From: Candidatus Foliamicus sp.
GTDB taxonomy: Bacteria; Pseudomonadota; Gammaproteobacteria; Steroidobacterales; Foliamicaceae
NCBI GenBank assembly: GCA_965206955.1
Contig: OZ242252.1
Location: 2,179,771-2,243,770 of the forward strand
DNA: 64,000 bases
Direction of reading: 5' to 3'
Below the pieces are notes generated by a model. That model was not told the DNA's origin. It saw only the letters and a list, made by a program, of their open reading frames with translations, and searched no databases. Below, in pieces: positions 7,075 through 42,300 of the stretch (the stretch's first letter is position 1; each line of letters begins with the position of its first letter). A program made the translations under genes and the position numbers.

Positions 7075-7155
7075 TTCGTGCATCAAGTATGGAAAGGCTC
7101 CTCCGTCGTTTGCCGGTGGTATGCTTGAATAACTTGCGTGGATAGACCAATAGAC

Positions 7156-9620: not shown

Positions 9621-9762
9621 ACGCGAGCGCATCGGTCCAGGTACTGCCTTGCGATCGCCCGGCAGGCGAATTCGCCCGCCTTCGCCCGTATCATTCGCCC
9701 CACGGTGAGGCGCAGGTGCTGGCGTGCGTAACAATTCAATAAACAAACCACGCGAAGGCGGG

Positions 9763-12051: not shown

Positions 12052-12071
12052 TGCAGGACGCTTCCGCAAAC

Positions 12072-12420: not shown

Positions 12421-12429
12421 GCTTGAGAA

Positions 12430-14898: not shown

Positions 14899-15269
14899 AA
14901 AAGATACCGGGAGTAATCGCGATCATCGCCCTTGCCATCGGGCTGACCTGGGCCGCTGGAAGAGTGGGCGACTGGCTGGGGTTTGCTCAACAGGTGGACC
15001 CTGCCGCGGAAGAGAAGCCCTCCGGGAACCAAGACATCCCCCCTGGGACCGAGGGCATCCTGCCCTCGAATAACGGCTCTCCCGGCGCAGAAACGGACAC
15101 CGAAGGGATCACCCCCGCTCCACCACAAATATCCGCCGAAGTAGCCTCCATCGAAGAAGACCTCGCCCGTATCGAGGAAGCCCTGCAAAGCGACGAAGTC
15201 CTGGAGGAATTCATCCCCTCCGAGCCCCTGTCCGCCGACAACCCCATTCCCTTTCCCACCGACATCTGA
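14895..15269 (+). CDS. small secreted/membrane-anchored acidic protein
   Basis: The ATG overlaps the upstream stop (ATGA). Signal/TM MKKIPGVIAIIALAIGLTWAAG. It contains an in-frame REP hairpin at 15051-15067. Confidence 0.6.
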   Translation: MKKIPGVIAIIALAIGLTWAAGRVGDWLGFAQQVDPAAEEKPSGNQDIPPGTEGILPSNNGSPGAETDTEGITPAPPQISAEVASIEEDLARIEEALQSDEVLEEFIPSEPLSADNPIPFPTDI

Positions 15270-15300: not shown

Positions 15301-17208
15301 CCTGACTTCGACGGTTGATGCGGCTGCGGGGTGGGTTTTGGCGGAAAGAGTCGTGTAATTCCGGGGATTTATTGGCGAGGGGTTCGGGATGGGCCAGCGT
15401 AGTGCCTAGTCCTTTTCTTTAGTTGACAAGCGTGCCCCCAGACGTTACCGTGCGTCCATGTTCATCCGCGTCAAAACCACCCCCAACAGCCCCCGGCGTT
15501 CCGTTCAACTCGTCGAGTCCGTGCGCGCCGGCGGAAAGGTCCGGCAACGCATCGTCCGGCACGTCGGCATCGCCATGGATGACGACGAACTGGTTCGGCT
15601 TAAGGAACTGGGGGAATTCATCAAGGCGAAGATCAGCGATGAACGCCAGCCGGGACTGTTCCCGCCCGAACCGATCGCCGAGCAGGCGATCCGGGCGTCA
15701 CGGGCGGCGAATAAGGCGCTGCGGGTGGACTTGAAGCAACTGGAGGAAGAACAGCGCGTGGTCACCGGCATTCACGAAGTGTATGGCGCGACGTATCGCC
15801 AACTGGGTTTTGACAAGCTGTTGCCGAGGTCCCGCTACCGCGCTTCCCACGACAGTCTGCTGCATACCGTCATGGCGCGGATCGCCAACCCCGACAGCAA
15901 GCGCGGCAGCGTGCGGCGGCTGGAGCAGGACTTCGGGGTGGGGCTGCCGCTGGAGAAGCTCTACCGGATGATGGATCACCTCGCCGGGCGGGTGATTGAG
16001 CGGCTCAAAACGCGGGTCGGCAGCGCCACGCAGGCGCTGCTGCCGGAGCCTTTGAACGTGCTGTTCTTCGACTGCACGACCTTGTATTTCGAGTCGTTCA
16101 CCGAGGATGAACTCAAACAGAATGGTTTCAGCAAGGACGCCAAGCACCATCAGGTGCAGGTGCTGCTGGCCCTGATGGTGACGCGGGAAGGTTTGCCGGT
16201 GAGCTATGCGGTGTTCCCGGGCGCCACCTACGAGGGACACAGCTTCATCCCGGTGCTTAAGGACGTGCAGCAGCGTCACCCACTCGGGCAAGCGGTATGG
16301 GTGGCTGACCGGGGGATGTTCAGTGACGATAATCTCAAGGAGTTGGAAGCGCAGGGCTGCGGATACATCGTGGGCGCCCGGATTAAGAACCTTCCCAAGA
16401 CGCTTGCCGAGCAAATTCTCGACACCGGCGCCTACCGGCCGCTGGAAGGCGTTGCGGGTAGGCAGGTTGCGCAATGGCGCCACGGTGACCGGCGGCTGGT
16501 AGTGACCTACAACCCGGCGCGGGCGCGCAAAGATCAGCACGAGCGCCGCAAGGCGGTTGAGAAGCTGATCAAAAAACTGGGCAAAAGCGATAACCCCAAG
16601 GCCCTGCTCGGCCATCGCGGCAACCAGCGCTTTATCACCATTGACGGCGACGCGCGGCTGATGCTCAACGAAGCCAAGGTCAAGGAAGCGGCGCGCTGGG
16701 ACGGGCTGCAGGGGATCATCACCAACCTTGAGGATATGCCGCACCACGAACTGCTGTCGCGCTATCGTGGCCTGTGGCAGGTCGAGGAAAGCTTCCGCAT
16801 CACCAAACATGACCTCAAGGTGCGCCCGATCTACCACTGGACGCCGCACCGGGTGCAGGCACACATCGCCATCGCCTTCATGGCTTTTGCCTGCATACGC
16901 CATCTCGCCTACCGGGTCGCGCTGCAGAAGCGCCGCATGTCTCCGGAAGTCATCCGCAATGCTCTCGTTCACCGCCAGTGTTCGGTGCTCCGGCACCGGC
17001 GCACCGGGAAACGCTATGCGGTGCCGTCAAAACCTTCCCGCGAAACAGAGGACATCTATCGAGCCATGGGGCTGCCACTTCCCACCACGCCCTGCGAACT
17101 CACCTGAACTCACCACTTCTCCCGGCGCTGCTGCTGAATGTAGTGCCTTGGCGCTGATGTGAATTCAGTTAAATCAACACGTTACGAAATCCAACCGTCG
17201 AAGTCAGG
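15301..17208 (+). mobile_element. IS1634-family (IS4 superfamily) insertion sequence
   Basis: 17-bp terminal inverted repeats CCTGACTTCGACGGTTG (15301-15317) and CAACCGTCGAAGTCAGG (17192-17208). Single transposase ORF, flanked by a 39-bp direct repeat. Confidence 0.9.
15458..17107 (+). CDS. IS1634-family DDE transposase
   Basis: The N-terminus MFIRVKTTPNSPRRSVQLVESVRAGGKVRQRIVRHVG is characteristic of this family as I recall it. 549 aa. Confidence 0.85.
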   Translation: MFIRVKTTPNSPRRSVQLVESVRAGGKVRQRIVRHVGIAMDDDELVRLKELGEFIKAKISDERQPGLFPPEPIAEQAIRASRAANKALRVDLKQLEEEQRVVTGIHEVYGATYRQLGFDKLLPRSRYRASHDSLLHTVMARIANPDSKRGSVRRLEQDFGVGLPLEKLYRMMDHLAGRVIERLKTRVGSATQALLPEPLNVLFFDCTTLYFESFTEDELKQNGFSKDAKHHQVQVLLALMVTREGLPVSYAVFPGATYEGHSFIPVLKDVQQRHPLGQAVWVADRGMFSDDNLKELEAQGCGYIVGARIKNLPKTLAEQILDTGAYRPLEGVAGRQVAQWRHGDRRLVVTYNPARARKDQHERRKAVEKLIKKLGKSDNPKALLGHRGNQRFITIDGDARLMLNEAKVKEAARWDGLQGIITNLEDMPHHELLSRYRGLWQVEESFRITKHDLKVRPIYHWTPHRVQAHIAIAFMAFACIRHLAYRVALQKRRMSPEVIRNALVHRQCSVLRHRRTGKRYAVPSKPSRETEDIYRAMGLPLPTTPCELT

Positions 17209-17288: not shown

Positions 17289-20262
17289 CTAGCCCGAGCC
17301 GCCAAGCTCCCAGTGGACCTCCAGGAAAAGAATCTGGCCGCGCCCATTCCAGCGAGTGGGGTCATATGGCAACAGGTGACTACTGGAAACCGTCGCCGGT
17401 GGATCGGCATCCAGGATATTTCGCCCGCCTGCCCGCAACCTGATGCGCTCGATTTCGCCCGCCTGCCCGCAACCTGATGCCGTTTTCAAACACGTAGGTG
17501 GCGGTAACATCCACAGTGGTGCTCGAACCCACATCAATCGCAACGGTGTCACCAAAGTTCTGGCAACGGCCAATTCCAATCAGATCGCCGTAACAAGTAA
17601 CCGCATCCTCGTTGACATAACTGGGCTTGTAATAGACAAACATGTCCAGGCCAAATCGTCCTCGCTGCCAGGTCAAGGAACCTGTAATCCTGTATTCGTC
17701 GCTTCCCTTTTGGGTTCCTACACGATCCACGGGTTCCGTCTCTGGCGTGATGCGGAAGAATTCGTCGAGCACACGGTAGTAATTGATCCGAGGAGTGAAA
17801 TGGCCCCAGGAAGTATCGAAGGAGTACTCCAGGTGAACATCCACGGATTCACTGATCTTCTCCGCGATATTGATGCTCGTGTTGTAGATGGTTACAGCTC
17901 TGCCGGTTGCGTCGCGCTCCACCAACTGCGGGAGCCTGAATGCGATATCGGCGTAGTTGTACAAGAGCGTGCTCCCGTACTCGATCTTGTCCTTGAAATC
18001 GGTGCGTTTCCAGTCAACAATCCAACGCAGACCGGGAATGGAAGTAGAGGACCAATCAAAACCAAGCGACCACTTGTCGCCGTGCTCCGCATTGATATCC
18101 AGATTATTGGACTGGAATTGTGTCGGGATAGGCCCGAAACTCGGGCCGCCGGGCGCGTAGGGGTCCGTGTAATAGGAATTGAACTCGCGGGAATTGCGGG
18201 TATTGAAGGTGTCGCTGAAAACGGGCGCCTTGAATGATCGTGACCAGGCGGCGCGAACAAGCACACTCCGCGTGGGCCGGTAAGCTATGCCAAAGCGTGG
18301 ACTGGTCCGGCTCTGTTTAGTCTTGACAATATTTGGCATGCCGACCTGGCTGGACACAAAACCTGGAACGCTTATCCAGCCTTCGCTCGGTACGAATTGA
18401 CGCCGCGTTCCAAATCCGCCAACAAAGTCAATGCCCCCGTCCGCACCCTCTGCTTCATAGCTGTCGTAGCGCGCCTGTGCCGTTAGCGTCAGCAGGTTGA
18501 TTCCGGGTCTTGCGTTTTGTTCACCCACGATGGGAAATGCGAATTCGGCAAAATAAGCACGTAATTCCTGTGTGGGTTCCGATACTCCAATAAACTCCTC
18601 TTCGCCCTCTTCCTCGATGCCGCCTTCTGCGTACCTTTGATACTTGTCGTATATAACAGTCTCGCGATACTCTGCGCCTACCGCATACTTGATCGCTCCG
18701 CCCCAAATCTCAAAGAGTTCGCCGCGCAGCAGTGGGTCAACCGTAGTCTTCTCGGTAAACCCGAGAGATGGCCCCAGCGCGTTGGTAAAGAGTTCGGCAA
18801 ATCCCTGTGATTGCGCAGTTCCATTTCCGAAGACGTTCAACGCAACATTGGGATCCGGGCTTGCAATGGCCGCATAGAAGGTGTCCTGTGTCGGGTCCCA
18901 TTCACTGCGCCGGTAATCAGGCCTGACCTGGTACGCAATGCTCTCGGAATCCGAAAGGGTTACGTTCAATTGAAATTGATGCACGTCTGCGAATTCCCAA
19001 AGAAAACCCACATTGTGATTCCGCTGTTTCTTTTCCGACTCAGTGTATGACCGCGGAATCAGGCCGGACTCAACCTCGGCGTTCGGCCAATAACCCACAA
19101 CCATGGTCCTGCCGAACGGGTTGAAGGCGTTACTGGCGGGGACCAGGTAGCCCGTCATGCTGGTCTGGAATTGCTGATAGGAATCAAGGTCGGAATACAG
19201 CAGATCGACATAGACGCGAAAATCGTCTGTGAGGTACTGCTCGAATATTACGTTGAGAGCATTTCTGCTCCAATCCGATCCGTTTTGCGGAGGCACGTAG
19301 TCAACAGGCACGACTTGATTGACCAGGAAGTCATCTACCGTAGCGCCGACTCCGCTGTGATCGGCAGGCAGCTGGTAGATGGTGGGATTAAAGAAAGAGC
19401 AACCGGGGAACAGATACGATCCATTGAACTCGCACACAAGCCCGGGTTGGCCATAAAAAGTTCGCCGCAAGTCAAACTCGGGCCCGAAACGGTCACGGTA
19501 GTCGCTTGACGTCCAACCTGCCTTACGAACATCGATCGGCTCACTCCCGGAGTGCGAAATGGAACCCGAAATGCTTCCGCTGGCCCAGGTGTAGCCGGCC
19601 TGCACGCTGCCCTTTTGACGATCCGCGTCTGTAGAACTCCATTCGTTGCGAATCGTTGCGCCGATGCCCGAGTAATTCTTCTTGACAATAAAATTGACGA
19701 CCCCCCCGATGGCGTCTGCTCCATACACGGCCGAAGCGCCGTCCAATTGAATATCCACTCGCTCAATTGCTTCCAAGGGCACCGTCAGGATATTGGCAAA
19801 ATCATCCTGATCACCCGGGTTGCCTGCGACGCGGCGTCCATTGATCAGCACCAGTGTGTTGGCTGAACCGAGTGCTTGCAGGTTGACGGTTGATGTTCCC
19901 AGGCCCAGTGCACCGAGGTTCTTGTCCGTATCTGATGCGCCGCCCCCGAAAAGCATGTCGGTTTGGGTAGTAATGGAGGAAAATGCGAAGGGCAAAGTTC
20001 GGAACAAGTCCTCCAGGCTGGACAAGCCTCGAACGGCAATGTCCTCGGCGGAGAAACTGTAGACTCGCGCCGAAGGATCGCCACCAACCATCCGTGAACC
20101 GGTGACGGTCTGGGTGGCCAGCTCAATCGGCTCTTCCTCGGTGACGGCGGTTGCGTCGTCCGCTTCCACCTCGTCTTGCACATCCTGGGTCAGGCCCAGG
20201 ACCGGTGTGACAAGCGCCGCTGCGAAAACCGCAAACCAGCGACTGCATGATGAATTACGCAT
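17289..20262 (-). pseudogene. TonB-dependent receptor, C-terminus frameshifted by a 34-bp tandem duplication
   Basis: Plug and barrel motifs are present (QTVTGSR, LEAIERVDIQLDGASAVYGADAIGGVVNFI). ORF 17380-20262 ends in the aberrant RAHQVAGRRAKYPGCRSTGDGFQ. The expected barrel end GGRNILDADPP...GRGQILFLEVHWEL continues in another frame to 17289. Confidence 0.75.
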
Positions 20263-24523: not shown

Positions 24524-25057
24524 ATGACGCGCTTATGGTTGCTGCGACACGCCAAGGCCGGGCCGTATTCCGCGGACGACTTCGGAAGGGCTCTGGCGCC
24601 GAGGGGGCGCCGCAACGCGCCGGCGATGGGCGAGAAGCTGGCGGCTGTGGGATGCGCACCGGAACGCGTGCTTTGTTCGGCTGGCCGGCGAGCGGTGGAG
24701 ACAATGCGCGGGGTGCTGCCCTGGTTGCCGGCCGACCTCAGCGTGGAGATCATGCACCGGCTGTACACCTTCAGTCCGGGCACGGTCTTGCATTGCTTGC
24801 GCGAGTTACCGGAGAACGCCGGCGACATCATGGTTGTAGGGCACAACCCGGCGCTGCAGGAGTTGGCCCTGTACCTGGCCGGAGCGGGCGAAGAGGATGC
24901 CTTTGCGATGCTGCACGGCAAGTTTCCTACCTGCGCGGTGGCCGAACTCGAATTTCCCGAGTCGCCTCATCCAACCGATTGGGCCGAGAGCAGCGCATAC
25001 CTGCGCCGCGTTCTCACGCCAAGGCCACCTGGATGGAAGAGGCGAACCTATCCTTGA
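24524..25057 (+). CDS. sixA: SixA-type phosphohistidine phosphatase
   Basis: MTRLWLLRHAKA... RH catalytic motif and VVGHNPAL. 177 aa. Confidence 0.8.
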   Translation: MTRLWLLRHAKAGPYSADDFGRALAPRGRRNAPAMGEKLAAVGCAPERVLCSAGRRAVETMRGVLPWLPADLSVEIMHRLYTFSPGTVLHCLRELPENAGDIMVVGHNPALQELALYLAGAGEEDAFAMLHGKFPTCAVAELEFPESPHPTDWAESSAYLRRVLTPRPPGWKRRTYP

Positions 25058-25090: not shown

Positions 25091-25297
25091 ATGGACGGAA
25101 CGGAATTCGTCAGGCGCGCCAGGAGATACGCCAAGAGTGTTGACACGTTTTTTCTCTTTGATCCTCGGCGAGGTAAGGGTAGTCATGGGATTCTGTATCT
25201 CGGTGAGCGGCGCACAGTGGTCAAACGTGGAGAGATTAAACCGGGAGCATTTCGTAGCATGCTTAAGCAGTTGGGCATTCCAAAGGAGAAGTTCTGA
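25091..25297 (+). CDS. hicA: HicA-family toxin
   Basis: 68 aa with RRGKGSHGILY and a C-terminal LKQLGI. Stop and start overlap with the downstream antitoxin. Confidence 0.8.
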   Translation: MDGTEFVRRARRYAKSVDTFFLFDPRRGKGSHGILYLGERRTVVKRGEIKPGAFRSMLKQLGIPKEKF

Positions 25298-25725
25298 TGC
25301 AATACGCCTATCCTTGCGTATTGACCCGTGAAGCCGCCGGCGGATACTCCGTCAGCTTTCCGGATGTTCCGGAAGCCATAACATGCGGCGAAAACCATGT
25401 CGATGCCCTTTCGATGGCCGAGGATGCGCTTGTGGCTGCTCTGGGCGCATACATAAGCTGCAAAGAGGACATTCCGCTTCCGAGTCCCGCAACTGACGGA
25501 CAATCGCTCGTTGCCGTCCCGCCGATAATTGCAGCCAAGACGGCGCTTTACATTGCGATGCGCCGAAAAGGACTGACCCAGGTCGCGCTTGCGCGCCGTC
25601 TTGGGCTTAGCGAGAGCGCCGTGCGTAAACTGTTGAATCCCGGCCATCGTTCCCATATCGGCCAGATCGAGAAAGCACTTCGCGCCGTAGGCCGTGGCCT
25701 GGTGGTTCGCGACCGGGCTGCCTGA
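25297..25725 (+). CDS. hicB: HicB-family antitoxin with C-terminal HTH
   Basis: MQYAYPCVLTREAAGGYSVSFPDVPEAITCGEN (HicB fold) plus GLTQVALARRLGLSESAVRKL. Confidence 0.85.
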   Translation: MQYAYPCVLTREAAGGYSVSFPDVPEAITCGENHVDALSMAEDALVAALGAYISCKEDIPLPSPATDGQSLVAVPPIIAAKTALYIAMRRKGLTQVALARRLGLSESAVRKLLNPGHRSHIGQIEKALRAVGRGLVVRDRAA

Positions 25726-25944: not shown

Positions 25945-26742
25945 ATGAGAAGACAGTTACCGGTAGAGTTTGTTTTCCAGCTGTTCTCGCTGTTTCTGTC
26001 GGTGATCCTTGTGCACGCCATGTACGTGGCGTGGATTCGCCCGCAGGCCAACGCGGTCCTCGAAGAGCAGCGAATGCTCCTGGAGCAGGATGGGGAATAC
26101 GTTCCTGAACGGTCTTTGTATGTGATCGTGCGCGATTTTGAGCAGGAGGCCTGCCTGATTCTGGCGCTTTGGGCCCTGGCGATCATGGGATACAAGGCGC
26201 GGGTAGCGCTGCGCGAGCGCTCTCTGTTGCAGCGTGACCTGCTGCCGCTGGCGGAAGGGGTGCGTATCCTTCCGGAAGACACGCGCGAGCACGCGCGGCA
26301 GTTGCGGGCAATGCCGGCTACCCAGCAGCGATTGCTCTTGCCGCGTGTATTGCTGAGCGCACTGCAGCGGTTCGGCGCCACGGGCAGTGTGCAGGATGTG
26401 TCGTCGGCCACCCAAACGCTGGTGAACTCCGAGGCCGAGCGCCTGGAGTCCGAGTTGTCGATGATTCGGTATATCGCATGGGCGATACCCTCGATTGGTT
26501 TTATCGGAACCGTTCGCGGAATCGGTGAGGCGCTGGCGCTTGCCTATCGGGCCGTGGAGGGCGACATCAGCGGGGTAACCGAGAGCCTGGGCGTGGCGTT
26601 CAATTCCACGTTCTTTGCGTTGCTGGTCAGCATATTCATCATGTTCCTTGTCCATCAACTTCAATTGCTGCAGGAGCGCCTGGTATTCGAAACGGCCGAC
26701 TACTGCGACGAACGGCTGATCCGGCGCCTGCAGGGTGATTGA
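25945..26742 (+). CDS. MotA/TolQ/ExbB-family proton-channel protein (divergent)
   Basis: Four hydrophobic helices. C-terminal signature IAWAIPSIGFIGTVRGIGEAL...LGVAFNSTFFALLVSIFIMFLV resembles the AP.LGLLGTV.G motif of ExbB/MotA. Confidence 0.8.
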   Translation: MRRQLPVEFVFQLFSLFLSVILVHAMYVAWIRPQANAVLEEQRMLLEQDGEYVPERSLYVIVRDFEQEACLILALWALAIMGYKARVALRERSLLQRDLLPLAEGVRILPEDTREHARQLRAMPATQQRLLLPRVLLSALQRFGATGSVQDVSSATQTLVNSEAERLESELSMIRYIAWAIPSIGFIGTVRGIGEALALAYRAVEGDISGVTESLGVAFNSTFFALLVSIFIMFLVHQLQLLQERLVFETADYCDERLIRRLQGD

Positions 26743-26758
26743 GCCGCAGGCAACTCGC

Positions 26759-28177
26759 ATGGCGCTGGTCGCCCTTGAAGTAAACAGCGCGGCGCTGGTG
26801 GGCGCCACGTCACAGGGTGTATTGTTCAACGAGCCGGGCGTGGCTCTGGTAGAGAAACGCCGCGTGCGCTTCGGGCGCGAGGCAGCGGCCGAAGCGCGAC
26901 TGAACCCGGGTCGGAGTTACGAGAACTACTGGGAGATGCTGTCGGACGAGCCGCTTCCCAGGCCGGCGCGGGGGTTTAGAAGCTACGCCGACCTGGCCCA
27001 CGGCCAGTTGCAGGAGCTCCGAAAGCGCTTTGAGCAGTCGGCGAGCAGGATTGACGGCTGCGTTCTGGTCGTTCCCGCAGGCACTGGGGACGAGCGTCTG
27101 GCGCTGCTTCTGGGAATAGCCGAAGAAGCCGGATTGCGGGTGGCCGGACTGGTCGAGAGCGGCGTGGCCGCGGTGCGTGGAATTCCCGCGAACCGTTCCT
27201 GCCTGCATATTGAGGCTACCGCCGAACGCATGATTGTGTGCCGCCTGGAGCAGCGTAGCGGCCGGGTTTACAGCGAAGAAGTGCTGTTCACCAGCCGTCC
27301 CGGGCTGCGTCACTTGCGTGCCGCAATGACTCGATATGTAGCGGGCCGCTTCATATCCGCTTCACGCTTCGACCCTCTGGAACTACCCGCTACGGAGCAA
27401 GAGCTGGCCGGCCAGCTGGATACATGGCTCGAGGCGGTGGTGACTGGCGGGGAACTGAAGGTCGAATTAAGCGGTGCGCCGATTCCCGCCGCTGCCGTCC
27501 TGCGGCGTGAACAGTTCATGGCGGCGCTCGAACGCCAGTTGGGGGCTCTGGGTAATAGTCTGCGTTCCTGGTGCACGGGGCCGCAACCCGCTGAAATACA
27601 GCTCGCCGGGTCCTTGGCGGCTGCTCCGGGTTGTGCCGGCGTGTTTGCGCGCATGCTGTCGTCCGAAGTACACCTTCTTCCGCCGGGGGCGTCGGCGCTT
27701 GGCGCTCTTGCACGATTCAGGCCGGGCGTTGAAGCCAGGGATCGCTACGTGCTGTTGCGTTCGCTTCCAGCCTTGGATTCACCGATGGAGGGCGGCGCCC
27801 CGAGAACCATTCGCTCCGAGGCCAATAGTCCGGAAGGCCGGGCAAGCGGAGGCGGCAATAGCAGTCCGCCGACGCCGACCCACCTGGTGCATGACGGCCA
27901 GGCCTGGCGCATCAATGAGACCGGCCTGCGCATCGGCTCATCTCCACAAGCGGGCAGCCTGTCGATTGTGCTTTCGCCCGAGGCCGGGATTTCGCGCAAC
28001 CATTGCACCGTGGCCCTGGAGAACGAACAAGCTGTATTGCATGATCACAGCCGCTATGGCACCAAACTGAACGGCGCTCCGGTAGTGGAGTTGGCGCCTT
28101 TGCGCGGGGGCGACGTGGTCAGCGTGGGCTCTTTGGAGTTTCTCGTGGCATGCGAGGTTCAAAGCGATGGCTCGTAG
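26759..28177 (+). CDS. degenerate Hsp70/actin-like ATPase-fold protein with C-terminal FHA domain
   Basis: N-terminus MALVALEVNSAALVG, VLVVPAGTGDERLALLLGIAEEAGLRVAGLVESGVAAV (compare VITVPAYF...AG..V..ll.EP.AAA), with no DLGGGT loop. C-terminus GISRNHCTV...HDHSRYGTKLNGAPV...GDVVSVG is FHA. An alternative GTG start at 26735 overlaps the upstream stop. Confidence 0.75.
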   Translation: MALVALEVNSAALVGATSQGVLFNEPGVALVEKRRVRFGREAAAEARLNPGRSYENYWEMLSDEPLPRPARGFRSYADLAHGQLQELRKRFEQSASRIDGCVLVVPAGTGDERLALLLGIAEEAGLRVAGLVESGVAAVRGIPANRSCLHIEATAERMIVCRLEQRSGRVYSEEVLFTSRPGLRHLRAAMTRYVAGRFISASRFDPLELPATEQELAGQLDTWLEAVVTGGELKVELSGAPIPAAAVLRREQFMAALERQLGALGNSLRSWCTGPQPAEIQLAGSLAAAPGCAGVFARMLSSEVHLLPPGASALGALARFRPGVEARDRYVLLRSLPALDSPMEGGAPRTIRSEANSPEGRASGGGNSSPPTPTHLVHDGQAWRINETGLRIGSSPQAGSLSIVLSPEAGISRNHCTVALENEQAVLHDHSRYGTKLNGAPVVELAPLRGGDVVSVGSLEFLVACEVQSDGS

Positions 28178-29264
28178 GCCGTTCCATATCTTCAGCATGT
28201 CGTTTCTGGACATCATTTCCTGCGGCTTTGGTGCGGTCGTGCTGTTCTTCGTCATCATCAACGCCCAGGTGCGCCTGCGGGCCGACGCCCAGCGAAGTGA
28301 TTTGCTGAGCGAATCCACTCTGCTGGAAGAGGAGGTTCTTGAGGGGCGCAAAGACCTGTTGCAGCTTCGCGGTGAGCGCAATACTCTGGACGATCAGCGC
28401 GCGGCGGCGATCGAAGAATTGCGTAAATTGCGTGAACGCCTGGCCGCACTGCTGACGGAGTTGGCTCAATTTGAACGCCTCGGCACGCAGAGCCAGGAGT
28501 CCATTGAGAAATTGCGTTCCGATGTCGACCGCCTCAATCAATTGCAGGAGCAGTTGGAGGCCAAGATCGCTGAGTCGGAGGAAGGCACGGGCCAGCGCTT
28601 GCGCGGCTTCGAGGGCCAGGGCGCTCGCCAATACCTGACTGGAATGCAAATGGGCGGCAGCCATGTCTTGATCCTGGTGGATTCCTCGGCCAGCATGCTC
28701 GGGCGCACCTATATCGACGTGCTGCGCTTCCGCTTGATGGATGAGGAGCTCAAGCCGCGCGCGCCCAAGTGGCTGCAAGTGGTCAATTCGGTGGATTGGA
28801 TCACTACCCGTCTGACTCCACAGCAGAAGTTTCAGGTGTATATCTATGGCGTGGAACACCGCAGTATTCTGGAAGGGAGTGACGGAGAATGGCTGACCGT
28901 GGGGGACGGCAGCCGTGTCACCGAAGCGGTTGAGGCCCTTCGCAGCTTTGCTCCAAAGGGCGGAACCAGCATGCATGCGGCGGTTCGGGCCGTTCGGGCA
29001 ATGACTCCGTGGCCGGTTAACGTGTTCCTGCTCACCGACGGGCTTCCCACGCAAGGGGACCGACCGCCGTCGCGAGTGGGCTGGGTGGGCTCCCGCACCC
29101 GGGAAAGCCACTTCAGCCGCGCGGTGCGTGACTTGCCGCCACGCATTCCGATTAACGTGCTCTTCTTTCCGATGGACGGCGATCCGGCCGCGACCGGCCA
29201 TTACTGGCAGATCGCTTCCCGGTCGCGCGGTTCCTTCATCAGCGTCTCCCGCGACTGGCCCTGA
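28167..29264 (+). CDS. ExbD/TolR-like TM anchor - coiled coil - von Willebrand A (vWA) domain protein
   Basis: The ATG overlaps the upstream gene by 11 nt. The TM FSMSFLDIISCGFGAVVLFFVII has an Asp placed as in ExbD/TolR (TPFIDVMLVLL). About 120 aa of heptad-rich coil follow. vWA MIDAS motif LVDSSASM...GGTSM...LLTDG. Confidence 0.75.
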   Translation: MARRPFHIFSMSFLDIISCGFGAVVLFFVIINAQVRLRADAQRSDLLSESTLLEEEVLEGRKDLLQLRGERNTLDDQRAAAIEELRKLRERLAALLTELAQFERLGTQSQESIEKLRSDVDRLNQLQEQLEAKIAESEEGTGQRLRGFEGQGARQYLTGMQMGGSHVLILVDSSASMLGRTYIDVLRFRLMDEELKPRAPKWLQVVNSVDWITTRLTPQQKFQVYIYGVEHRSILEGSDGEWLTVGDGSRVTEAVEALRSFAPKGGTSMHAAVRAVRAMTPWPVNVFLLTDGLPTQGDRPPSRVGWVGSRTRESHFSRAVRDLPPRIPINVLFFPMDGDPAATGHYWQIASRSRGSFISVSRDWP

Positions 29265-29449: not shown

Positions 29450-29686
29450 TTGGACCTTGACACGCTGCGACGCAATCCAGGAGGAGTGCGCTTCCGCGAC
29501 CTTTGCAGGATATGTGAGGCATATTTTGGAAAACCCCGGCAAGCCGGGACCAGCCACCGGTTTTACCGCACTCCGTGGCCCGGCGATCCGCGCGTGAACA
29601 TTCAGAACGATCATGGGATGGCAAAGGCTTATCAGGTCCGGCAAGTAATCAAAGCAATCGAAAAGCTGGAGAAGCAGAGTGATTGA
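29450..29686 (+). CDS. HicA-like toxin
   Basis: TTG start 6 nt after AGGAG. GTSHRFYRTPWPGDPRVNIQNDHGMAKAYQVRQVIKAIE resembles the HicA GSH...P.H core. It overlaps the downstream antitoxin by 8 nt. Confidence 0.65.
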   Translation: MDLDTLRRNPGGVRFRDLCRICEAYFGKPRQAGTSHRFYRTPWPGDPRVNIQNDHGMAKAYQVRQVIKAIEKLEKQSD

Positions 29687-29999
29687 CCATTACACCTATC
29701 GAGTTACCTGGTCCGCCGAAGACCGCGAACATGTCGCTCTTTGCGCCGAATTTCCGTCACTCAGTTGGCTGGCCTCTACCCCACAAGGCGCCCTGACCGG
29801 GATTCGGAAGCTCGTAGGCGAAGTGCTGGCGGACATGCACACTGCTGGCGAATTGCCGCCTGAGCCGCTTGCCGACCGGGCATTTAGCGGTAAGTTCGTG
29901 GTGCGTATTCCGCCTGCGATGCACCGTGAATTGGCCATCAACGCAGCCGAGGAAGGCGTTAGCCTGAATCGCCTTGTTAGTTCCCGCCTGGGCCGCTGA
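29679..29999 (+). CDS. HicB-like antitoxin with RHH C-terminus
   Basis: YTYRVTWSAEDREHVALCAEFPSLSWLASTPQGAL plus FSGKFVVRIPPAMHRELAINAAEEGVSLNRLV. Confidence 0.75.
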   Translation: MIDHYTYRVTWSAEDREHVALCAEFPSLSWLASTPQGALTGIRKLVGEVLADMHTAGELPPEPLADRAFSGKFVVRIPPAMHRELAINAAEEGVSLNRLVSSRLGR

Positions 30000-32236: not shown

Positions 32237-35200
32237 TTAGAAGGATTTGTGGAGTGACAGGCTGTACGCGCGGCCCTGAGTCCACTCATAGACGGGATTC
32301 ACTCGGTAGTTCAAAGTCTCGCCCGTTTCAGGGTTCAACCTGGTGGATTTTGCGTATGCATCCGTAATGTTGTTGACCGTCAGGGTTGCGCTGAAGTTGT
32401 CCATCCATGCCGGTGCGTCAAACAGGGAATCCTCTCCAAATTCGTAACTCAGCACCAGGTCGTAATTGGCGGCCGGCTCGGTAATGAAGTGGCTCGTGGC
32501 TATCCATTTTCTGACCACATCGTCGGAGTCCTGCATGTCAAGGCTGAGGAACAGGCCGCCGCGCGCCCAGGTAATTTGCATGCTGGTCTGGTGCCTGGGA
32601 ACCGGCAGGATGGTTACTTCTTCCTCACCGGTATCGTCACGCTGCCCCACAAGGTCGTGCACAACTTTTGAGATGGCGGATTGTTGAACGTCATAACGAT
32701 TGGTGTATGAGCGCCGTAGCTTAACGCCGAAGTCGTTGAGTCCCCGGCTCCACTCATAGCGGAGCTCGTAATCCACGCCTGAACGGTTGACGGCGTAGCT
32801 GTTGATCCAGCGCTCGTCAAGCACGTACAGGTCATCATCCGGAAAATAGGTAAGGGTGGGAGGAAGGTTGTTCAGGTCTTCAACGATCCCCGTGCTGAGC
32901 TTCGAAATGCGATTGGTGAATTCCGTGTCGCTCCAGCCAACCTTGAACAACAGGCCCGGCAGGAAGGCAGGTGTAAGTTCCGCCACCAGGCTGAGGTTCT
33001 CGGCGGTCTCAGTCTCCAAAGTATCGTTGCCGCCCCTTAACTTAACCACGCCACGCTGTATGACAAATTCGCCGTTCTCGTCGACGTAAACAAAGAGACT
33101 GAATGGGCTCGGATCCAATCGCTCCACCCGCTGCAGCAATTGGTTCAGTTGCGGCGCGACAAAGGAAGTGCTGAACTTGCCCCGAAACTGCATGGCGCCG
33201 TTGGGTCGGTACACCAGCCCTCCACTCCATGTGAACTCGCTTCCGGGGTCATCGGCATCCAGTGCGCCGGCATCGCCATTGGAACTCTGGCCGTATTCCA
33301 CTTCCGCGTTGGAATAAGAATCGTAACGGCCTGAAAAGGTGAGGCTCAACTGTTGCACGCCTGCCATGGCATTGCCTGAACCGACCAGTGGAACCAATCC
33401 TTCCACGAATCCCGAGTGGCTGGCACGGCTGATGCGCGTGTTGAATGCCGTATAGCCCGTGGGTGTGTCATTGCTCAGGAAATTACCCAGCAATGCCAAC
33501 TCAGAGAAGGAATCCAGCACATCCTCACGGTAATCGTAGCCTACCGCCAGCGCAACGGGTCCGCCCGGGGCGTTGAACAGGTTACCGCGCGCCAGCGCTT
33601 CAAACTGCTGTTGCTCGTTTTTGGACCCCGCGTCCAGGCCGGGGATGATATATGGATTGGCGTCGGCAAAAGGATTAACGGGATCAGGCGGCTGGCCGAG
33701 AACACGGCAGATGCCGATGAAGAAGCGATTAGGGGTGTAGGTGTAGCTCCAGCCCCCTAACTCTACCCGTCTGGCCTCACACTGCTCCTCGGTAACACGA
33801 AGCAGAAACGCTATCGCGGCGCCGGTTACTCCATCGCTGTTCAGGCCGCGAGTATAAGAACTGTCAAGGACGTTGTAACGAGTGGTGGCGATTTTCTGCC
33901 GCGAGGAGCTGTACTCGGCCTGCCAGGTCCAGCTTCCCAGCGAACCCTCGGCGCCGAGCCGGGCAAACATCTCGTCCGTCTGGGACTCATAAGTTTGCGG
34001 TGGAGTGCCAACCAGCAAGCCAACTATCCGCACCTGAACTCCGAAAGGGTTAAAGGGGTTATGTTCGTGCAGAATCTGAGTACCAAGAGAGCTCGTAGCG
34101 TTGAGTCCGTCGCCGGAATTGGAATCCTTCCTTGTCATACGCAGGTTGGCGTGCAGGGCCAGCGAATCCGTCAATTGCTGATCCACGCCCAGGTTCACTG
34201 TGTTGTAACTCTGTTCCGGTCGCAGGCTATAGCCCTCCTCGGCCTCGCCGCGCCAGTGCTGCTCGCCGAATAGTTCGATGGAATTAAGATCGTCCGTGTG
34301 CTGGAACCCAAGCGGCAGGGTTACGTCCTCGCGGCACGTTGCATTGGCCTTGCCGGCCTCGTCCAGCGCCAGGTAATCGGCGTGGGTAACCTTACTCCCA
34401 TCCGCCAGTTCCCATAGCACCGGCAACTGGGCAAGACGATTGGTCCGGTGGGGTGGGGGCGGGCAGTCACCACTCGTACGGTGGCCGAAAATCCGCCATT
34501 GCGGGCCGGCCGCCGCCTGTTTGTTCCCGGGGGTGTAGCCCAGATCAGTGCGTAAAGGAATAACAGCCGAATCCCGTTGCGAGGCATCCAGCCCGGAATC
34601 CTGGAAGTGCTCAAAACCAAACGTGGCTCGCCCTCCTGACCATGCCAGTCCGGCGGCCAGACTTACTTTCCTTTCGTCATAGCCGCTCTTATGCGGGCGG
34701 GAATAGTTGATGTCGAGTTCCACACCCGAGTAGTCCTGCCGGGTAATGATGTTCACTACGCCGCCCACCGCGTCCGACCCATACACGGCGGATGCCCCAT
34801 CCAGCAAGATTTCAACCCGCTCAACCATGGATAAGGGGATCGTGGAGATGTCGGTGACACCACCCAAGATTCCGCTGTAGCCAACCCGGCGGCCGTCCAC
34901 CAGGATCAGCGTGGATTCGCTGCCCAGGCCGCGCAGGTTCACGGTGGCGGCGCCGGTCTTGTTCCCGGCCGTGTTCAACAGCGAGCCGTAGGTCTCGTTG
35001 GTTGGGTTTGCGTTCTGGGGCAACTGACGGAGCAATCGCGCCAAAGTGAGTTCTCCACTCGCTCTAATGTCATCGCGGTCCAGCACGATGAGGTTGCCGG
35101 AGATCTCCGACGGCGAGCGGCTGAGCCGGCTGCCGGTTACCCGGACGTCCTCCAACTGCAATGCCTCGTCTTCTTCATCGTCCGCATCTTCCTGAGCCGA

Positions 35201-35308
35201 CGCGAAGTTCAGGCTGAGCGCCAAACCGGCGAGTATTGCCAGCATGAGGGAAGCAGCCAAGTGAAAACTGCGCCACCCGCGCAGGCAGAGGTTTGCAGAG
35301 TGTGCCAT
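32237..35308 (-). CDS. TonB-dependent receptor (large, ~1020 aa)
   Basis: Signal peptide, acidic linker, plug (LEDVRVTGSRL, VERVEILLDGASAVYGSDAVGGVVNIITR) and terminal ...SLSLHKSF. Start at MAHSAN (35308) or 35365. Confidence 0.9.
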   Translation of the reverse strand: MAHSANLCLRGWRSFHLAASLMLAILAGLALSLNFASAQEDADDEEDEALQLEDVRVTGSRLSRSPSEISGNLIVLDRDDIRASGELTLARLLRQLPQNANPTNETYGSLLNTAGNKTGAATVNLRGLGSESTLILVDGRRVGYSGILGGVTDISTIPLSMVERVEILLDGASAVYGSDAVGGVVNIITRQDYSGVELDINYSRPHKSGYDERKVSLAAGLAWSGGRATFGFEHFQDSGLDASQRDSAVIPLRTDLGYTPGNKQAAAGPQWRIFGHRTSGDCPPPPHRTNRLAQLPVLWELADGSKVTHADYLALDEAGKANATCREDVTLPLGFQHTDDLNSIELFGEQHWRGEAEEGYSLRPEQSYNTVNLGVDQQLTDSLALHANLRMTRKDSNSGDGLNATSSLGTQILHEHNPFNPFGVQVRIVGLLVGTPPQTYESQTDEMFARLGAEGSLGSWTWQAEYSSSRQKIATTRYNVLDSSYTRGLNSDGVTGAAIAFLLRVTEEQCEARRVELGGWSYTYTPNRFFIGICRVLGQPPDPVNPFADANPYIIPGLDAGSKNEQQQFEALARGNLFNAPGGPVALAVGYDYREDVLDSFSELALLGNFLSNDTPTGYTAFNTRISRASHSGFVEGLVPLVGSGNAMAGVQQLSLTFSGRYDSYSNAEVEYGQSSNGDAGALDADDPGSEFTWSGGLVYRPNGAMQFRGKFSTSFVAPQLNQLLQRVERLDPSPFSLFVYVDENGEFVIQRGVVKLRGGNDTLETETAENLSLVAELTPAFLPGLLFKVGWSDTEFTNRISKLSTGIVEDLNNLPPTLTYFPDDDLYVLDERWINSYAVNRSGVDYELRYEWSRGLNDFGVKLRRSYTNRYDVQQSAISKVVHDLVGQRDDTGEEEVTILPVPRHQTSMQITWARGGLFLSLDMQDSDDVVRKWIATSHFITEPAANYDLVLSYEFGEDSLFDAPAWMDNFSATLTVNNITDAYAKSTRLNPETGETLNYRVNPVYEWTQGRAYSLSLHKSF

Positions 35309-35566
35309 GCGTGTGCCCCAAGTCCCCAGAGGAGTTTCACTATACGGCACTACCGAATCTTGCACAATTTACCATAGCGTTGGCTGGCGATTCGGAGGCT
35401 GCGCTCCTACTGATCGGCTCTTGCTCCGCTCAGGTTCTTGTCAGAATTCGGGGGAAAAGGCGCCTGAATGCGCTCCTGCTTCCGGCTGAGAAGTCCTGTG
35501 CCGCCGCCATGCGTGCAACACTTGAACCAGGACCGAGCTGAAGGCCGTGCTGCGGGGTCGTATTTC

Positions 35567-39378: not shown

Positions 39379-42300
39379 TCAGAAGGACACGTGTATGTTC
39401 AGACGATATGACCGACCTTGCGTCCACTCATAGAAAGGGTTGATGCTGTAATCCTCAATCTCGCCCGTTTCCGGATTCAACTCGTAATTGTCAGCATAGG
39501 CGTCGGTCAGGTTGTTGATCGTAAGAGTGGTGCTTACGCCGTTCAGCCAAGCGGGTGCATCGAAAAACGTGTCATTGCCGAATTCGTAACCAATGACCAT
39601 GTCGTAGATTGTCGCCGGCTTGGTTACGTATTCCAGATTCGAAGAATAGCGCGTGCGGGTTTCGGCAGCGCCCTGCAGATCAAGGCTGAGGAACAATCCG
39701 CCGCTTGTCCAAGTGAATTGCATACTGGTCTGGTGCTTGGGAACCGGATACAGCAGCGCTCTACGCGGCGTCGTGTTGTCCTTCACTGTCAGGAGGCTCT
39801 GGACATCGTCCTGAGCAGGATCAACCAGAACATCAAACCGGTTTGTGTAGGAGCGCCGGGTCAAAATGGAGAAGTCATTGAGGCCCATTGACCAGTCGTA
39901 GCGAAACTCAAAGTCAATGCCGGTGCGATTTACGTAGGAAACATTGACCCAGCGGTTATCGCGCAGGTAAATGTCTTCTGCCGGATCGTAGATAACATTG
40001 CTGGGAAGATTATTGGGGTCGATGTTTGTAACCGAACGGAAATAGGCGATGCGATCCTCGAACTGCGTGTCGCTCCAGCTGGCCCGAAGGAAAACTCCAG
40101 GCAGGAAATTAGGCGAAATCTCGGCAGTTACACCAATGGTTACGGCTGTTTCGGGTACTAGCTTGTCGTTGGCGCCAAGGTTGTCAAAGACGTTGCCTTG
40201 GGCCTGCGTTCTATCCTGTGAGTCCGGTTCCGTGAAGTACAGTCCTTGGAAGGCCGGCGCTGCAATACGCTCCCGGGTACGTTGAATCAACTGGTTCAAT
40301 TGCGGAGCAACGAAAGCCGTTTGCCGGTCGGCCTTGAACTGCAGCTCGTCGTTGACCCGCCACACGATGCCCGTGCTGTAGGTGAATTCGCTACCCGGGT
40401 CGGCGGGTTCGTCCGTTCCGGCCGATCCGGATCGGGTTTCGCGGTAGTGCACTTCCACATTGGAATATGAATCGTAACGGCCAGAGAATGTCAGGTTGAA
40501 GCGCTGAACGCCGGCCATCGCATTGTCGCTGCCGATCAGTGGTATCAACCCCTCAAAGAAGCCGGCTTGGGTCTGACGGCCGATGGAAGTGTTGAATGCT
40601 TCGGCGCCTGCCGGCGAGTCATTCGGGCAAGCAACCGGCGAGCATTGGCCGCCGGAGGCGTGAAACTCCGAAAAGGAATCAAGCACATCTTCGCGGTAGT
40701 CGAAGCCCACGACCAGCGCTATCCTGCCTCCCGGTGCGCTGAACAATTCTCCGCGCAATGACGCCTCGAACTGGGTTTGCTCGTTCTGTGAGCCGCTGTC
40801 CAAGCCCACTGCAAGATACGAGGATAAGTCGCCAAAGGGGTTGATGGGTGTCGGTGGAGCGCCGTAGACGCTGCAGTTTCCGCCGAAGAAGGACGAATAG
40901 CTAAAGCGCGTGCCGCCGATTTCCATTTGCTTCGCTTCGCATGCGGCCCGGTCGATTCCACTGAATCTGCCGATGATTGCCTCAGTTACACCGTCGCTGT
41001 TCATTCCGTTGCGGATGGCGTTGGAATTTACAACGTTCATCTGCCGGGAAGCAATCTCTTGCTCCGAGCGGCTGAATTCCCAGTCCCAGGCCCAGTTGTC
41101 GCTGAATGATCCATCCATGCCCAGCCGGGTGAACAATTCGTCCGTATCGGAATCGAACAAGCGTGGCGGCGTGTTCGGAATCTGGCCAAAAGCTGTGACG
41201 GTAATGCCAAACGGGTTGTAGGGACTATTGCCATGGAAGTTACCGTAGAAGACATTTATCCCGCTGTTTGAGATGGTCTTCTTGGAGCCCCAACGTACAT
41301 TGGCGTGCGCCGTAATGGTGTCCGTGATGGCCTGATCAACGGCCATGTTTACAACATTCTGGTCCTGTTCGGGTCGCAGGCTATAGCCTAATTCAGCACC
41401 CTCTCCGAACCCGGCTGCACCAAAGAGATCGATCGAATTAAGGTCGTCGCCCGGCATAAAGCCCAGAGGCACGGTGATGTCCGCATGACAAGTTGCCATC
41501 GCCTGACTTTCGGCGCCCAGCGCGGCGTATTCATCGCGCGTAAGGATATTGCCGTCGAGTTCATACACGATGGCTCTGGCCTCATTACAGGAACGATCGA
41601 AGAAGTAGCTAAACATGCGTACCTGAGGTCCCGACAGACCGCGCTGCTGTGTACCGGAATCATCACGGTTGGCAAGAATGATTGAATCCCGATTCGAAGC
41701 ATCGAGTCCGGAATCGCGGAAATATTCGTAACCCACGTTGATGCGACCACCGTCCCACGCGAATCCGCCAGCTAGGTTTGCCCGAGTTTCATCAAATCCA
41801 CTCTTATGTGGACGGCTGTAATTCAAGTCTAGTTCAATGCCGGAATAATCCTTCCGCGTAATGATGTTTACTACACCTCCAACGGCATCCGAGCCATATA
41901 CGGCGGAAGCGCCGTCCAACAGAATCTCAATTCGGTCCACCATCGAAAGCGGGATGGTGGAAATATCGGTGACGCCGCCCAACAGGCCGCTGTAGCCAAT
42001 GCGCCGCCCGTCCACCAGAATCAGAGTGGATTCACTGCCGAGCCCGCGTAAATTTACGGTTGATGCTCCGGTAATGTTGTTTGTTCCGTTAAGGTCCGAA
42101 CCGTACGTCTCGTTCGTACCGTTTATGTTTTGGGGCAGTTGACGAAGCACGCGGGCCAGCGTCAACTCGCCGGAAGCACGGATCGCATCCCTGTCCAAAA
42201 TGATGAGATTGCCCGAGAGCTCGGATGGTGAGCGATTCAGCCGGCTGCCGGTGACCCTTACGTCACTCAGCTCCAAGGCTTCTTCGTCTTCCTCGTCCGC

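Follow-up and report, generated by a model that had tools for sequence, protein, structure and literature searches.

What kind of machine is encoded by three coupled genes that join a channel protein of the MotA/TolQ/ExbB family (A), a degenerate Hsp70-FHA protein (B) and a membrane-anchored vWA protein (C)? The trio lies in a 64,000-nt stretch of Candidatus Foliamicus sp. DNA (OZ242252.1, 2,179,771-2,243,770), which we refer to as the window and whose own positions are used as coordinates throughout. A sequence-only reading of this DNA had proposed that the three genes make up an undescribed envelope system coupled to the proton motive force (PMF) in an accessory or defence-island context. 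Given what we found in other genomes, the trio appears instead to belong to a reduced and split copy of a widespread envelope system, the motor core of which was proposed in 2025 and the control layer and lipoprotein partners of which appear to be unreported. We favor, with moderate confidence, the possibility that A and C, together with the rest of a conserved cluster, form a kinase-regulated, PMF-driven envelope motor in which B couples the state of the kinase to the motor.

The three open reading frames (ORFs) are listed on one strand at the coordinates given in Table 1, and the junctions between them, including the translational coupling and the alternative starts of B, are those that the sequence-only reading had described. 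The stop codon of A is TGA 26740-26742; a GTG at 26735 overlaps this stop and an ATG at 26759 sits 17 nt downstream, while C starts at ATG 28167 and overlaps B by 11 nt. All 115 B homologues inspected (about 472 aa, 98% query coverage) have their first residue where this ATG lies, which makes 26759 the probable start of B; GTG 26735 was dropped as a candidate. A chance origin of the trio is excluded by the synteny that it keeps in about 80 genomes of several phyla.

Protein A matches the Pfam family MotA_ExbB (PF01618) over residues 133-247 with 53.9 bits against a cut-off of 22.9. As its scores fall far under the cut-offs of the NCBIfam equivalogs (tolQ, 27.2 against 221 bits; exbB2, 17.7 against 135 bits) while clearing the Pfam threshold, A is, by these profiles, a divergent subfamily of the MotA/TolQ/ExbB channels. 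Thr145 and Thr178 of TolQ, like Thr148 and Thr181 of ExbB, are regarded in established work as essential pore threonines. In a phmmer alignment with E. coli TolQ (8odt), T189 of A falls on T145 and T222 of A on T178, and the two motifs that hold these residues, GFIGTVRGIG and FNST, are near-invariant in 75 distinct family members. With regard to topology, for which the choice is between three and four transmembrane (TM) segments and the basis is hydropathy and charge distribution only, the profile of A suggests four segments (8-30, 69-87, ~174-196 and 216-240) and a cytoplasmic N-terminus, an arrangement like that of MotA.

Protein C would supply the partner of this channel. Its short N-terminus is rich in Lys and Arg and is followed by a single TM helix, FSMSFLDIISCGFGAVVLFFVII. 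When C is aligned with C2, a paralogue encoded in the conserved cluster described below, S12, F13, L14, D15, C19, G20, G22, A23 and L26 are invariant in both, and the Asp of the LSFLD motif is found in 83 of 84 copies of C and 79 of 80 copies of C2 (162 of 164 together). The N-termini of C2 proteins are likewise rich in Lys and Arg, which fits a topology with the N-terminus in the cytoplasm. No ExbD/TolR or MotB/OmpA profile was among the Pfam and NCBIfam matches of C at E≤1. In an AlphaFold2 model of C, helices run from residue 11 to 104 and from 110 to 139, the part predicted to be periplasmic being 34-139; a linker of low confidence follows, and residues 160-365 form a domain modelled with confidence (predicted local distance difference test score, pLDDT, about 90). 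Foldseek matched this domain to 4fx5 (E 6.5e-7) and then to the vWA domains of ITIH1, TEM8/CMG2, LapA, NorD and ArnB; Pfam VWA_3 scored 26.9 bits against a cut-off of 27. The metal ion-dependent adhesion site (MIDAS) is complete, with D172, S174 and S176 invariant, GG(T/S)S at 265-268, and T290 and D291 near-invariant. Two further motifs are invariant in C and missing from C2: RQYLTG at 154-159 (window 28626-28643), which lies in the linker, and the C-terminal DWP at 363-365 (window 29253-29261).

Protein B is cytoplasmic; hydropathy shows no TM segment. Its AlphaFold2 model is confident overall (pLDDT 88.9, predicted template-modelling score 0.87), and Foldseek matches residues 1-~335 to the nucleotide-binding domains (NBDs) of DnaK, Hsc70 and Ssb with E values of about 1e-14 and target-normalised template-modelling scores of up to 0.73. 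A profile of the B family also finds Ssb1, Ssz1 and Sse1 in the PDB at about 1e-3. The loops that hold ATP in true Hsp70s are another matter: throughout the family the phosphate-1 loop reads ALExNDA(A/G)L instead of IDLGTTNS, and the phosphate-2 loop reads LHx(E/D)xxLH, with a 2-residue deletion opposite the GGG of DnaK. Because the glycine loops have been lost family-wide, B is probably unable to bind nucleotide. The C-terminal substrate-binding domain of Hsp70 is absent, and a disordered linker (341-367) and an FHA domain stand in its place. The FHA domain is recognised by profile (PF00498, 38.8 bits against a cut-off of 20.7; FHA domains of the PDB matched down to 5.6e-8), and the SRxH and NG residues (S412, R413, H415, N438, G439) are conserved. 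Invariant in B are also RFDPL at 203-207, which matches the 'NDPL' region of Hsp70, and PTH at 373-375, where the FHA domain starts; together with RQYLTG and DWP of C, these motifs are candidate interaction sites. For all three proteins, the domain descriptions given in the sequence-only reading were borne out: A as a channel of the ExbB/MotA type, for which the Pfam match and both retained pore threonines speak; C as a protein whose one TM helix bears an Asp, near-invariant in the family, in the position known from ExbD, TolR and MotB, and in which a coiled coil (~120 aa in that reading, about 105 residues here) and a vWA domain take the place of the peptidoglycan-binding domain of the ExbD or OmpA type; and B as a degenerate Hsp70 fold without nucleotide loops that ends in an FHA domain with its phosphothreonine-binding Arg replaced, in which fold match, loops and residues agree.

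The claim that the trio constitutes a system fared less simply. The three genes are indeed conserved together well beyond this genome, but they do not stand alone; they are half of a cluster of 9-10 genes. This cluster was first seen around distant B homologues (30-37% identity) on long contigs. A scan with C/C2 alignments, taking one genome per GTDB species, then gave 271 relatives, and the best 80 of these 271 were mapped by tblastn. In essentially every locus that was long enough the order is X0-X1-kinase-FGE-(small)-A-B-C-C2-(Y2), where FGE denotes a protein with PEGA repeats and a domain like that of formylglycine-generating enzymes (FGE-sulfatase), and the gene for this protein and that for the Ser/Thr kinase are as tightly syntenic as the motor genes. 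At distant loci X1 has about 400 aa, the kinase about 770, the PEGA and FGE-sulfatase protein about 800, the small protein about 100, C2 about 330 and Y2 about 200. C2 repeats the architecture of C: the LSFLD..CGFGA helix is followed by a coiled coil, and the vWA domain shows DxSxS; Y2, the last gene of the cluster, encodes a lipoprotein. No tolR, exbD or motB gene was present in any of the ~80 loci, where A always adjoins B-C or C. Just downstream of the cluster there is in two loci a convergent gene for a TPR protein (L001, 12173-13636, minus strand, also with TonB_C; L002, 11982-13832) that is absent from the window.

On the gammaproteobacterial side the carriers include Woeseiaceae, Halieaceae, Steroidobacteraceae, Pseudomonadales, Cellvibrionaceae, Microbulbifer echini and Pseudoalteromonas denitrificans; Desulfobacterales, Acidobacteriota (Vicinamibacteria and Thermoanaerobaculia) and Rhodospirillales are further carriers, and sponge symbionts are among the hosts. 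The family is large. At E≤0.001, and among the candidates scored, more than 2,300 proteins matched the window's C and more than 6,900 the C of Pseudoalteromonas, and the N-terminal domain of B is found in 1,227 clusters (50% identity) at E≤0.001 and in at least 913 at E≤1e-10. Its members carry only public names such as 'VWA domain-containing protein', 'FHA domain-containing protein' and 'hypothetical'.

The mapped loci also separate the core of the system from its accessories. B is absent from seven of the 80 loci. In these seven A directly precedes C, and C2 is retained along with the genes for the kinase and the FGE protein. As the rest of the cluster persists without it, B is dispensable for the core and is accessory or regulatory. 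The seven loci (L059, L061, L067, L069, L079, L085 and L086) are gammaproteobacterial and include a Sedimenticolaceae metagenome-assembled genome; they amount to a natural set of B deletions that can be compared with B-containing relatives.

In the window the upstream half of the cluster (7138-15269) is present and intact, about 11 kb from the trio. The first gene, X0, was located with the X0 proteins of 10 loci, which by tblastn hit 8194-8364 in the frame of the X0 ORF (E 5e-12 to 7e-6); X0 has the conserved C-terminal motif DDD(I/V)VA(R/K)QLREAA..E.DP.LRE.LW.EYR.YK, and no Pfam family was found for it. X1 is 43% identical over 359 aa to X1 of L001 and lies upstream of the kinase in most loci; it had no match to a Pfam or PADLOC family. 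The kinase, itself syntenic in most loci, matches Pfam Pkinase at 2.9e-38, its TPR matches being weak. The residues needed for catalysis (Lys, HxD, Asn and DFG) are kept by 17-20 of 20 family members, the window copy included, and the cluster kinase is apparently active. In the PEGA/FGE-like protein, which is syntenic in nearly all loci, the PEGA repeats (4.5e-45) and the FGE-sulfatase domain (2.7e-38) are clear Pfam matches, while the N-terminal FHA match is weak (E 0.066). True formylglycine-generating enzymes use a catalytic pair of Cys residues. The sequence RGSSWLHGALRELRWAYR of the window protein has no Cys, and because its FGE-like domain lacks this pair, the domain is more likely a lectin-like binding domain. 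The small protein has a homologue at the same position in L005, and an ORF of L001 shares both its position and its C-terminal motif; for the distant versions, these two shared features are our only grounds for inferring homology.

Comparison with the closest relatives, L006 (B 92% identical) and the 'Candidatus Foliamicus' locus L005 (B 62%), gives some idea of how the locus came to be split. By this comparison the interruption of the cluster by ppx and ppk is old in the clade, and the HicAB pairs and the insertion sequence are recent additions: L005 has neither HicAB pair, and L006 has only the upstream HicB. Downstream of C, the same genes for a short-chain dehydrogenase/reductase (SDR) and an acyl-CoA dehydrogenase follow in all three loci, directly so in L005 and L006, and the flanks as a whole are housekeeping genes conserved in close relatives (ppk/ppx upstream, SDR/acyl-CoA dehydrogenase downstream). 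C2 and Y2 are not next to C in the window, in L005 or in L006, and tblastn found neither anywhere in the window, the C2 query hitting only C. Identity within the clade is 60-92% for homologues of B and 73-94% for those of C, and this strong conservation indicates that the reduced system is maintained.

Table 1. Genes of the cluster and neighbouring features in the window (positions are window coordinates).
Feature	Position	Strand	Length	Description
X0	7138-8394 (ORF limits, true start uncertain)	+		first gene of the cluster; low-complexity, Gly-rich/acidic, conserved C-terminal motif
X1	8343-9620	+		predicted lipoprotein, lipobox LLGAC, C-terminal Gly-rich hydrophobic segment
Ser/Thr kinase	9724-12051	+		eukaryotic-type; N-terminal kinase domain, one TM segment ~312-335, periplasmic helical/TPR-like region, C-terminal beta domain
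PEGA/FGE-like protein	12430-14898	+		weak FHA-like N-terminus, TM segment ~165-195, 3-4 PEGA repeats, FGE-sulfatase-like domain; predicted periplasmic ligand-binding arm
Small protein	14895-15269	+		signal-anchored, acidic, C-terminal ...FP.DI tail; 4-nt overlap with preceding gene
IS4-family DDE transposase gene	15458-17107		549 aa	DDE_Tnp_1 2.3e-17; directly downstream of small protein gene; not at this position in L005
TonB-dependent receptor gene	17380-20262	-		Pfam Plug and beta-barrel
ppx, ppk	between TonB-dependent receptor gene and His_Phos_1 gene			Pfam domains as called in L005/L006
His_Phos_1 gene	24524-25057		~175 aa	SixA/PGAM-like; between ppk and A
HicAB pair, upstream of trio	25091-25725			HicA and HicB confirmed by Pfam
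A	25945-26742	+	265 aa	MotA/TolQ/ExbB-family channel subunit, predicted pentameric stator shell
B	26759-28177	+		pseudo-Hsp70 NBD fold 1-~335, disordered linker ~340-370, FHA ~375-465; predicted regulatory adaptor
C	28167-29264	+	365 aa	Lys/Arg-rich N-terminus, TM helix with D15, ~105-residue helix, RQYLTG, vWA/MIDAS, DWP; predicted dimeric rotor/shaft subunit
HicAB-type pair, downstream of trio	29450-29999			HicB confirmed by Pfam; 78-aa partner without Pfam match

Several local features are worth recording beside these genes. In L005 the His_Phos_1 gene (8679-9194) extends 4 nt into A, an arrangement suggestive of co-translation; its product might be the phosphatase partner otherwise missing from the cluster, or it might merely belong with ppk and ppx. 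At its 5' end the PEGA/FGE gene has a perfect tandem duplication of 48 nt (12446-12545, 2.1 copies, 100% identity), apparently a recent one, which repeats 16 residues, ITLPDGDRILTADELP, in frame just ahead of the weak FHA-like region. About 11 tandem copies of a 29-nt unit with the core of a repetitive extragenic palindromic (REP) element, GAGGGCATCCTGCCCTCG, fill the space from the kinase gene to the PEGA/FGE gene (12072-12403), and a further copy of the core lies inside the coding sequence of the small protein (15051-15068), where it is read in frame as EGILPS and could be a tolerated low-complexity insertion or gene damage. Besides the TonB-dependent receptor gene of Table 1, there are further large ORFs resembling such genes at 32237-35365 and 39379-42426 (both on the minus strand); the three encode 960-1042 aa, and relatives also have TonB-dependent receptor genes around the locus.

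A plausible scenario that brings these observations together is the following. A pentamer of A would enclose the N-terminal helices of a C dimer in a PMF motor of the 5:2 type, with Asp15 of each C helix accepting protons as it faces the ring formed by T189 and T222 of A. The dimer would be a C/C2 heterodimer in most genomes; since C2 and Y2 are absent from the locus, C is expected to act as a homodimer here. C has neither a TonB-like nor a peptidoglycan-binding domain; fully extended, its 105-residue stalk would be roughly 16 nm long and, with the linker and the vWA head, could reach the outer-membrane side, where the MIDAS head would grip an acidic ligand; as a matter of speculation, the lipoproteins of the cluster or the small acidic protein with its ...FP.DI tail are candidates. 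The motor would then pull or turn the ligand held by the head. To this the upstream half of the cluster would contribute a TM Ser/Thr kinase with a periplasmic TPR-like sensor, and a binding protein with FHA-like, PEGA and FGE-like parts, while B on the cytoplasmic face would link the state of the kinase to the motor as a clutch, a brake or an assembly factor. Our reasoning for assigning B the role of a regulatory adaptor is that it is cytoplasmic, coupled between A and C, dispensable and built from an Hsp70 scaffold and an FHA domain, and that the kinase is always in the cluster.

There are several observations that weigh against this scenario or limit it. (i) The Arg that follows G393 in canonical FHA domains is Ser in B, and Arg is found there in only 6 of 47 sequences; with the canonical phosphothreonine-binding residue missing, phospho-dependent binding by B is in doubt and its interactions may be independent of phosphorylation. 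(ii) The conserved cluster includes no phosphatase gene. (iii) The AlphaFold2 model of C is that of a monomer, with low confidence in the TM helix, stalk and linker, and our proposals for an A5:C2 complex and for the contacts that B makes are drawn from homology and gene order. (iv) In the window the cluster is split and lacks C2 and Y2, and the local system may work differently or only partially; our argument for function despite the split and the loss is the strong sequence conservation within the clade.

A bolder version of the scenario is one that we put forward tentatively and regard as possible, if rather doubtful: that this is the first 5:2 rotary motor gated by eukaryotic-type Ser/Thr phosphorylation, in which the kinase, sensing the periplasm with its TPR-like arm and with the PEGA/FGE-lectin protein as partner, would recruit or release nucleotide-free B as a clutch on the cytoplasmic face of the motor, and the vWA heads of the coiled-coil shaft, thereby set rotating, would pull an outer-membrane lipoprotein. 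Such a machine, new and widespread, would convey both force and signal across the envelope, in a function unlike those of Ton, Tol, Mot, Gld and Zorya. The known 5:2 proton motors are MotAB, ExbBD, TolQR, GldLM, AglRQS and ZorAB, and each of these families drives a different envelope process. If the scenario is true, it would add a motor with an integrin-like MIDAS adhesion domain at the tip of its rotor subunit, and the conserved control layer of kinase, FHA domain and pseudo-Hsp70 would be a new mode of motor regulation. The family spans several phyla and is uncharacterised, and some cultured carriers (Pseudoalteromonas denitrificans, Thalassomonas, Thalassotalea and Microbulbifer) are potentially tractable.

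Among the other explanations is a Ton- or Tol-like energiser for an ordinary outer-membrane task such as import, tethering or the handling of lipoproteins or polysaccharides, in which the vWA domain would take the role of the C-terminal part of TonB or TolA and the kinase module would be only loosely associated. The channel helices of A are closest to those of TolQ, two lipoproteins are conserved in the cluster, several TonB-dependent receptor genes are found in the window, a TPR/TonB_C protein stands beside the cluster in L001, and the published interpretation of similar gene pairs is that of a 'force transducer' (PMC12204202). Set against these points, the conserved cluster holds no transporter or barrel gene, the TonB-dependent receptor genes near the trio are not kept as neighbours in distant loci, and the tight synteny of the kinase and PEGA/FGE genes with the motor genes argues that they are not loosely associated. 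On balance we consider this explanation unlikely.

Defence is the main alternative, although we think it quite improbable that the cluster is an anti-phage or anti-invader defence system like Zorya, in which a PMF motor would sense a perturbation of the envelope and signal through the kinase and the FHA domain to an effector. The conserved cluster encodes no effector, be it a nuclease, a protease, an NADase or one of another kind, and gene content and order are fixed in the ~80 genomes and not modular. A motor joined to signalling proteins is admittedly the architecture of ZorAB, and predicted conflict systems draw on some of the same types of domain (vWA, FGE-like, PEGA, FHA, Ser/Thr kinase, Hsp70-like); vWA, FGE-like, PEGA, FHA and Hsp70 domains figure in the survey by Kaur et al. 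2020 (PMC7159879), which does not mention MotA. Searches against PADLOC matched the kinase domain to the PD-T4-6 and mad6 kinase models, but these matches are confined to the generic kinase domain, and no significant match was obtained for A, B, C, X1, the FGE protein, the small protein, C2 or Y2. Sequence identity to copies in Acidobacteriota and Rhodospirillales, which is about that to other Gammaproteobacteria, is compatible with horizontal transfer.

The genomic surroundings had been the ground for the accessory or defence-island context suggested by the sequence-only reading, and here the reading did not hold. HicAB modules and REP elements do flank the trio, as it had stated, but the window contains 45 copies of the REP core, against 0.01 expected by chance, most of them between genes, and there is nothing locus-specific about it. 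We rejected both elements as island markers: the REP element is genome-wide, and the HicAB pairs are lineage-specific, L005 having neither pair and L006 lacking the downstream one. The flanks, as described above, are conserved housekeeping genes.

A motor might also be dispensed with altogether. In that case C would be a vWA protein like ArnB that binds the FHA domain of B in a phospho-switch, as in ArnA/ArnB of Sulfolobus, and A would be merely co-located. Triads of FHA, vWA and kinase proteins form phospho-dependent complexes in archaea (PMC6509490), and the ArnAB structure 8s05 is among the weak matches of C (profile E 0.013; Foldseek E 1e-4). We judge this very unlikely, because the Lys/Arg-rich N-terminus and the Asp at the N-terminal end of the TM helix predict that the N-terminus of C is inside and its vWA domain outside, which would put B in the other compartment. 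Without an interaction between channel and helix it would moreover be hard to account for an invariant LSFLD..CGFGA helix in C and for the pore threonines in A, and the seven loci without B keep A, C and C2. Least probable of all is a machinery for surface adhesion or gliding like Agl-Glt of Myxococcus, where a TolQR-type motor moves a complex ending in the vWA adhesin CglB, as here the vWA domain is fused to the inner subunit of the motor and is no lipoprotein of the cell surface, the loci showed no Glt-like genes, and the hosts, which include sponge symbionts, Woeseiaceae, Halieaceae and Desulfobacterales, are to our knowledge not known for gliding. The resemblance that prompts the comparison is a TolQ-like motor and a vWA/MIDAS protein in both systems, with FHA-containing and lipoprotein partners in both (PMC11761067), and gliding has also been raised in PMC12204202.

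There is precedent for the motor core of the kinase-regulated system that we favor. A computational study without experiments (PMC12204202; Mol Biol Evol 2025, section 8, Fig. 4c,d) described tolQ-like genes tightly linked to genes for proteins with a TM helix, an Asp and a vWA domain, with no tolR or exbD. These 'trans-pore helix' (TPH)-vWA proteins have a conserved Asp, form mostly heterologous pairs and occur mostly in Proteobacteria; AlphaFold 3 models place a dimer of them inside a TolQ-like pentamer (5:2). The family was seeded from Idiomarina loihiensis and was read as a 'force transducer', with gliding as a further suggestion (PMC12204202). Judged from the features described there, A, C and C2 very probably belong to the same family, as they share the Asp-bearing TM helix and the vWA domain, the tolQ-like neighbour, the lack of tolR, exbD and motB, and the pairing; there was no Idiomarina entry among 120 listed homologues of the Pseudoalteromonas C. 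The window differs in its single vWA gene, its split cluster and the presence of B between A and C. In the text of PMC12204202 the words 'kinase' and 'Hsp70' do not occur, and it mentions no Hsp70-fold/FHA gene, kinase, PEGA/FGE-like protein or lipoproteins. It was the only directly relevant paper that our literature searches returned for the full domain combination, and in these searches neither the larger cluster nor the pseudo-Hsp70-FHA protein, nor the linkage to kinase, FGE protein and lipoproteins, turned up in any description. The idea that the system is undescribed consequently has to be given up for the pairing of motor and vWA domain, proposed in 2025, but can be kept for the linkage to pseudo-Hsp70, kinase, FGE protein and lipoproteins, which appears to be unreported.

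The control layer has its own parallels. In the PpkA-PppA-Fha1/TagH circuit of the type VI secretion system (T6SS) and in mycobacterial pairs of Ser/Thr protein kinases and FHA proteins, a TM Ser/Thr kinase with a periplasmic sensor works beside FHA proteins, as would be the case here. The PpkA circuit includes a vWA domain, and its FHA proteins control the assembly of a membrane machine. Unlike the T6SS, the cluster has no cognate PP2C phosphatase, and the FHA domain of B is without the canonical Arg; the TagH model (TIGR03354) gave 27 bits against a cut-off of 120.25, and no T6SS genes were present in L001-L006. As for the fold of B, adaptors with the ASKHA fold such as PilM, GspL/EpsL and FtsA dock onto the short cytoplasmic tails of bitopic membrane partners. 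The degenerate actin/Hsp70 fold of PilM, FtsA and the cytoplasmic domain of GspL/EpsL makes these proteins possible analogues of B, which differs from them in that its best structural matches are true Hsp70 NBDs and in its fusion to an FHA domain.

That the trio is not Tol, Ton, Mot, Zorya or Bat, as the sequence-only reading had it, agrees with the profile tests for membership in these systems, which were negative. Bat or MoxR-vWA systems would bring an AAA+ or DUF58 gene, and none was seen among the called genes of L001-L006 or the window genes examined. Zorya shares a MotAB-like PMF motor and non-canonical partners with the cluster; A differs in having no long cytoplasmic tail and C in having no peptidoglycan-binding domain, and in the PADLOC search ZorA matched A at E 0.019 (12 bits, not significant) with no match for ZorB, ZorC, ZorD or ZorE. 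The likeness to TolQR, ExbBD and MotAB goes deeper. The Asp of the partner subunit is D23 in TolR, D25 in ExbD and D32 in MotB, and the one TM helix of C likewise carries an Asp close to the cytoplasmic end, to go with a channel subunit of the MotA_ExbB family that keeps both pore threonines. Unlike the partner subunits of these systems, C continues into the periplasm as a coiled coil and vWA domain, and no third subunit like TonB or TolA accompanies it; the hydropathy of A suggests four TM segments, like those of MotA.

A closer analogy for what C might do is offered by GldLM and PorLM. GldM, the inner dimeric subunit of a 5:2 motor, is a long shaft that spans the periplasm and acts on outer-membrane components in type IX secretion (T9SS) and gliding. 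No sequence relationship with C was detected, the periplasmic domains of GldM are not a coiled coil and a vWA domain, and there is no T9SS context here. Nevertheless, in GldLM/PorLM the inner subunit is itself the trans-periplasmic shaft, and among the known systems this would be the best functional analogy for the stalk and head of C.

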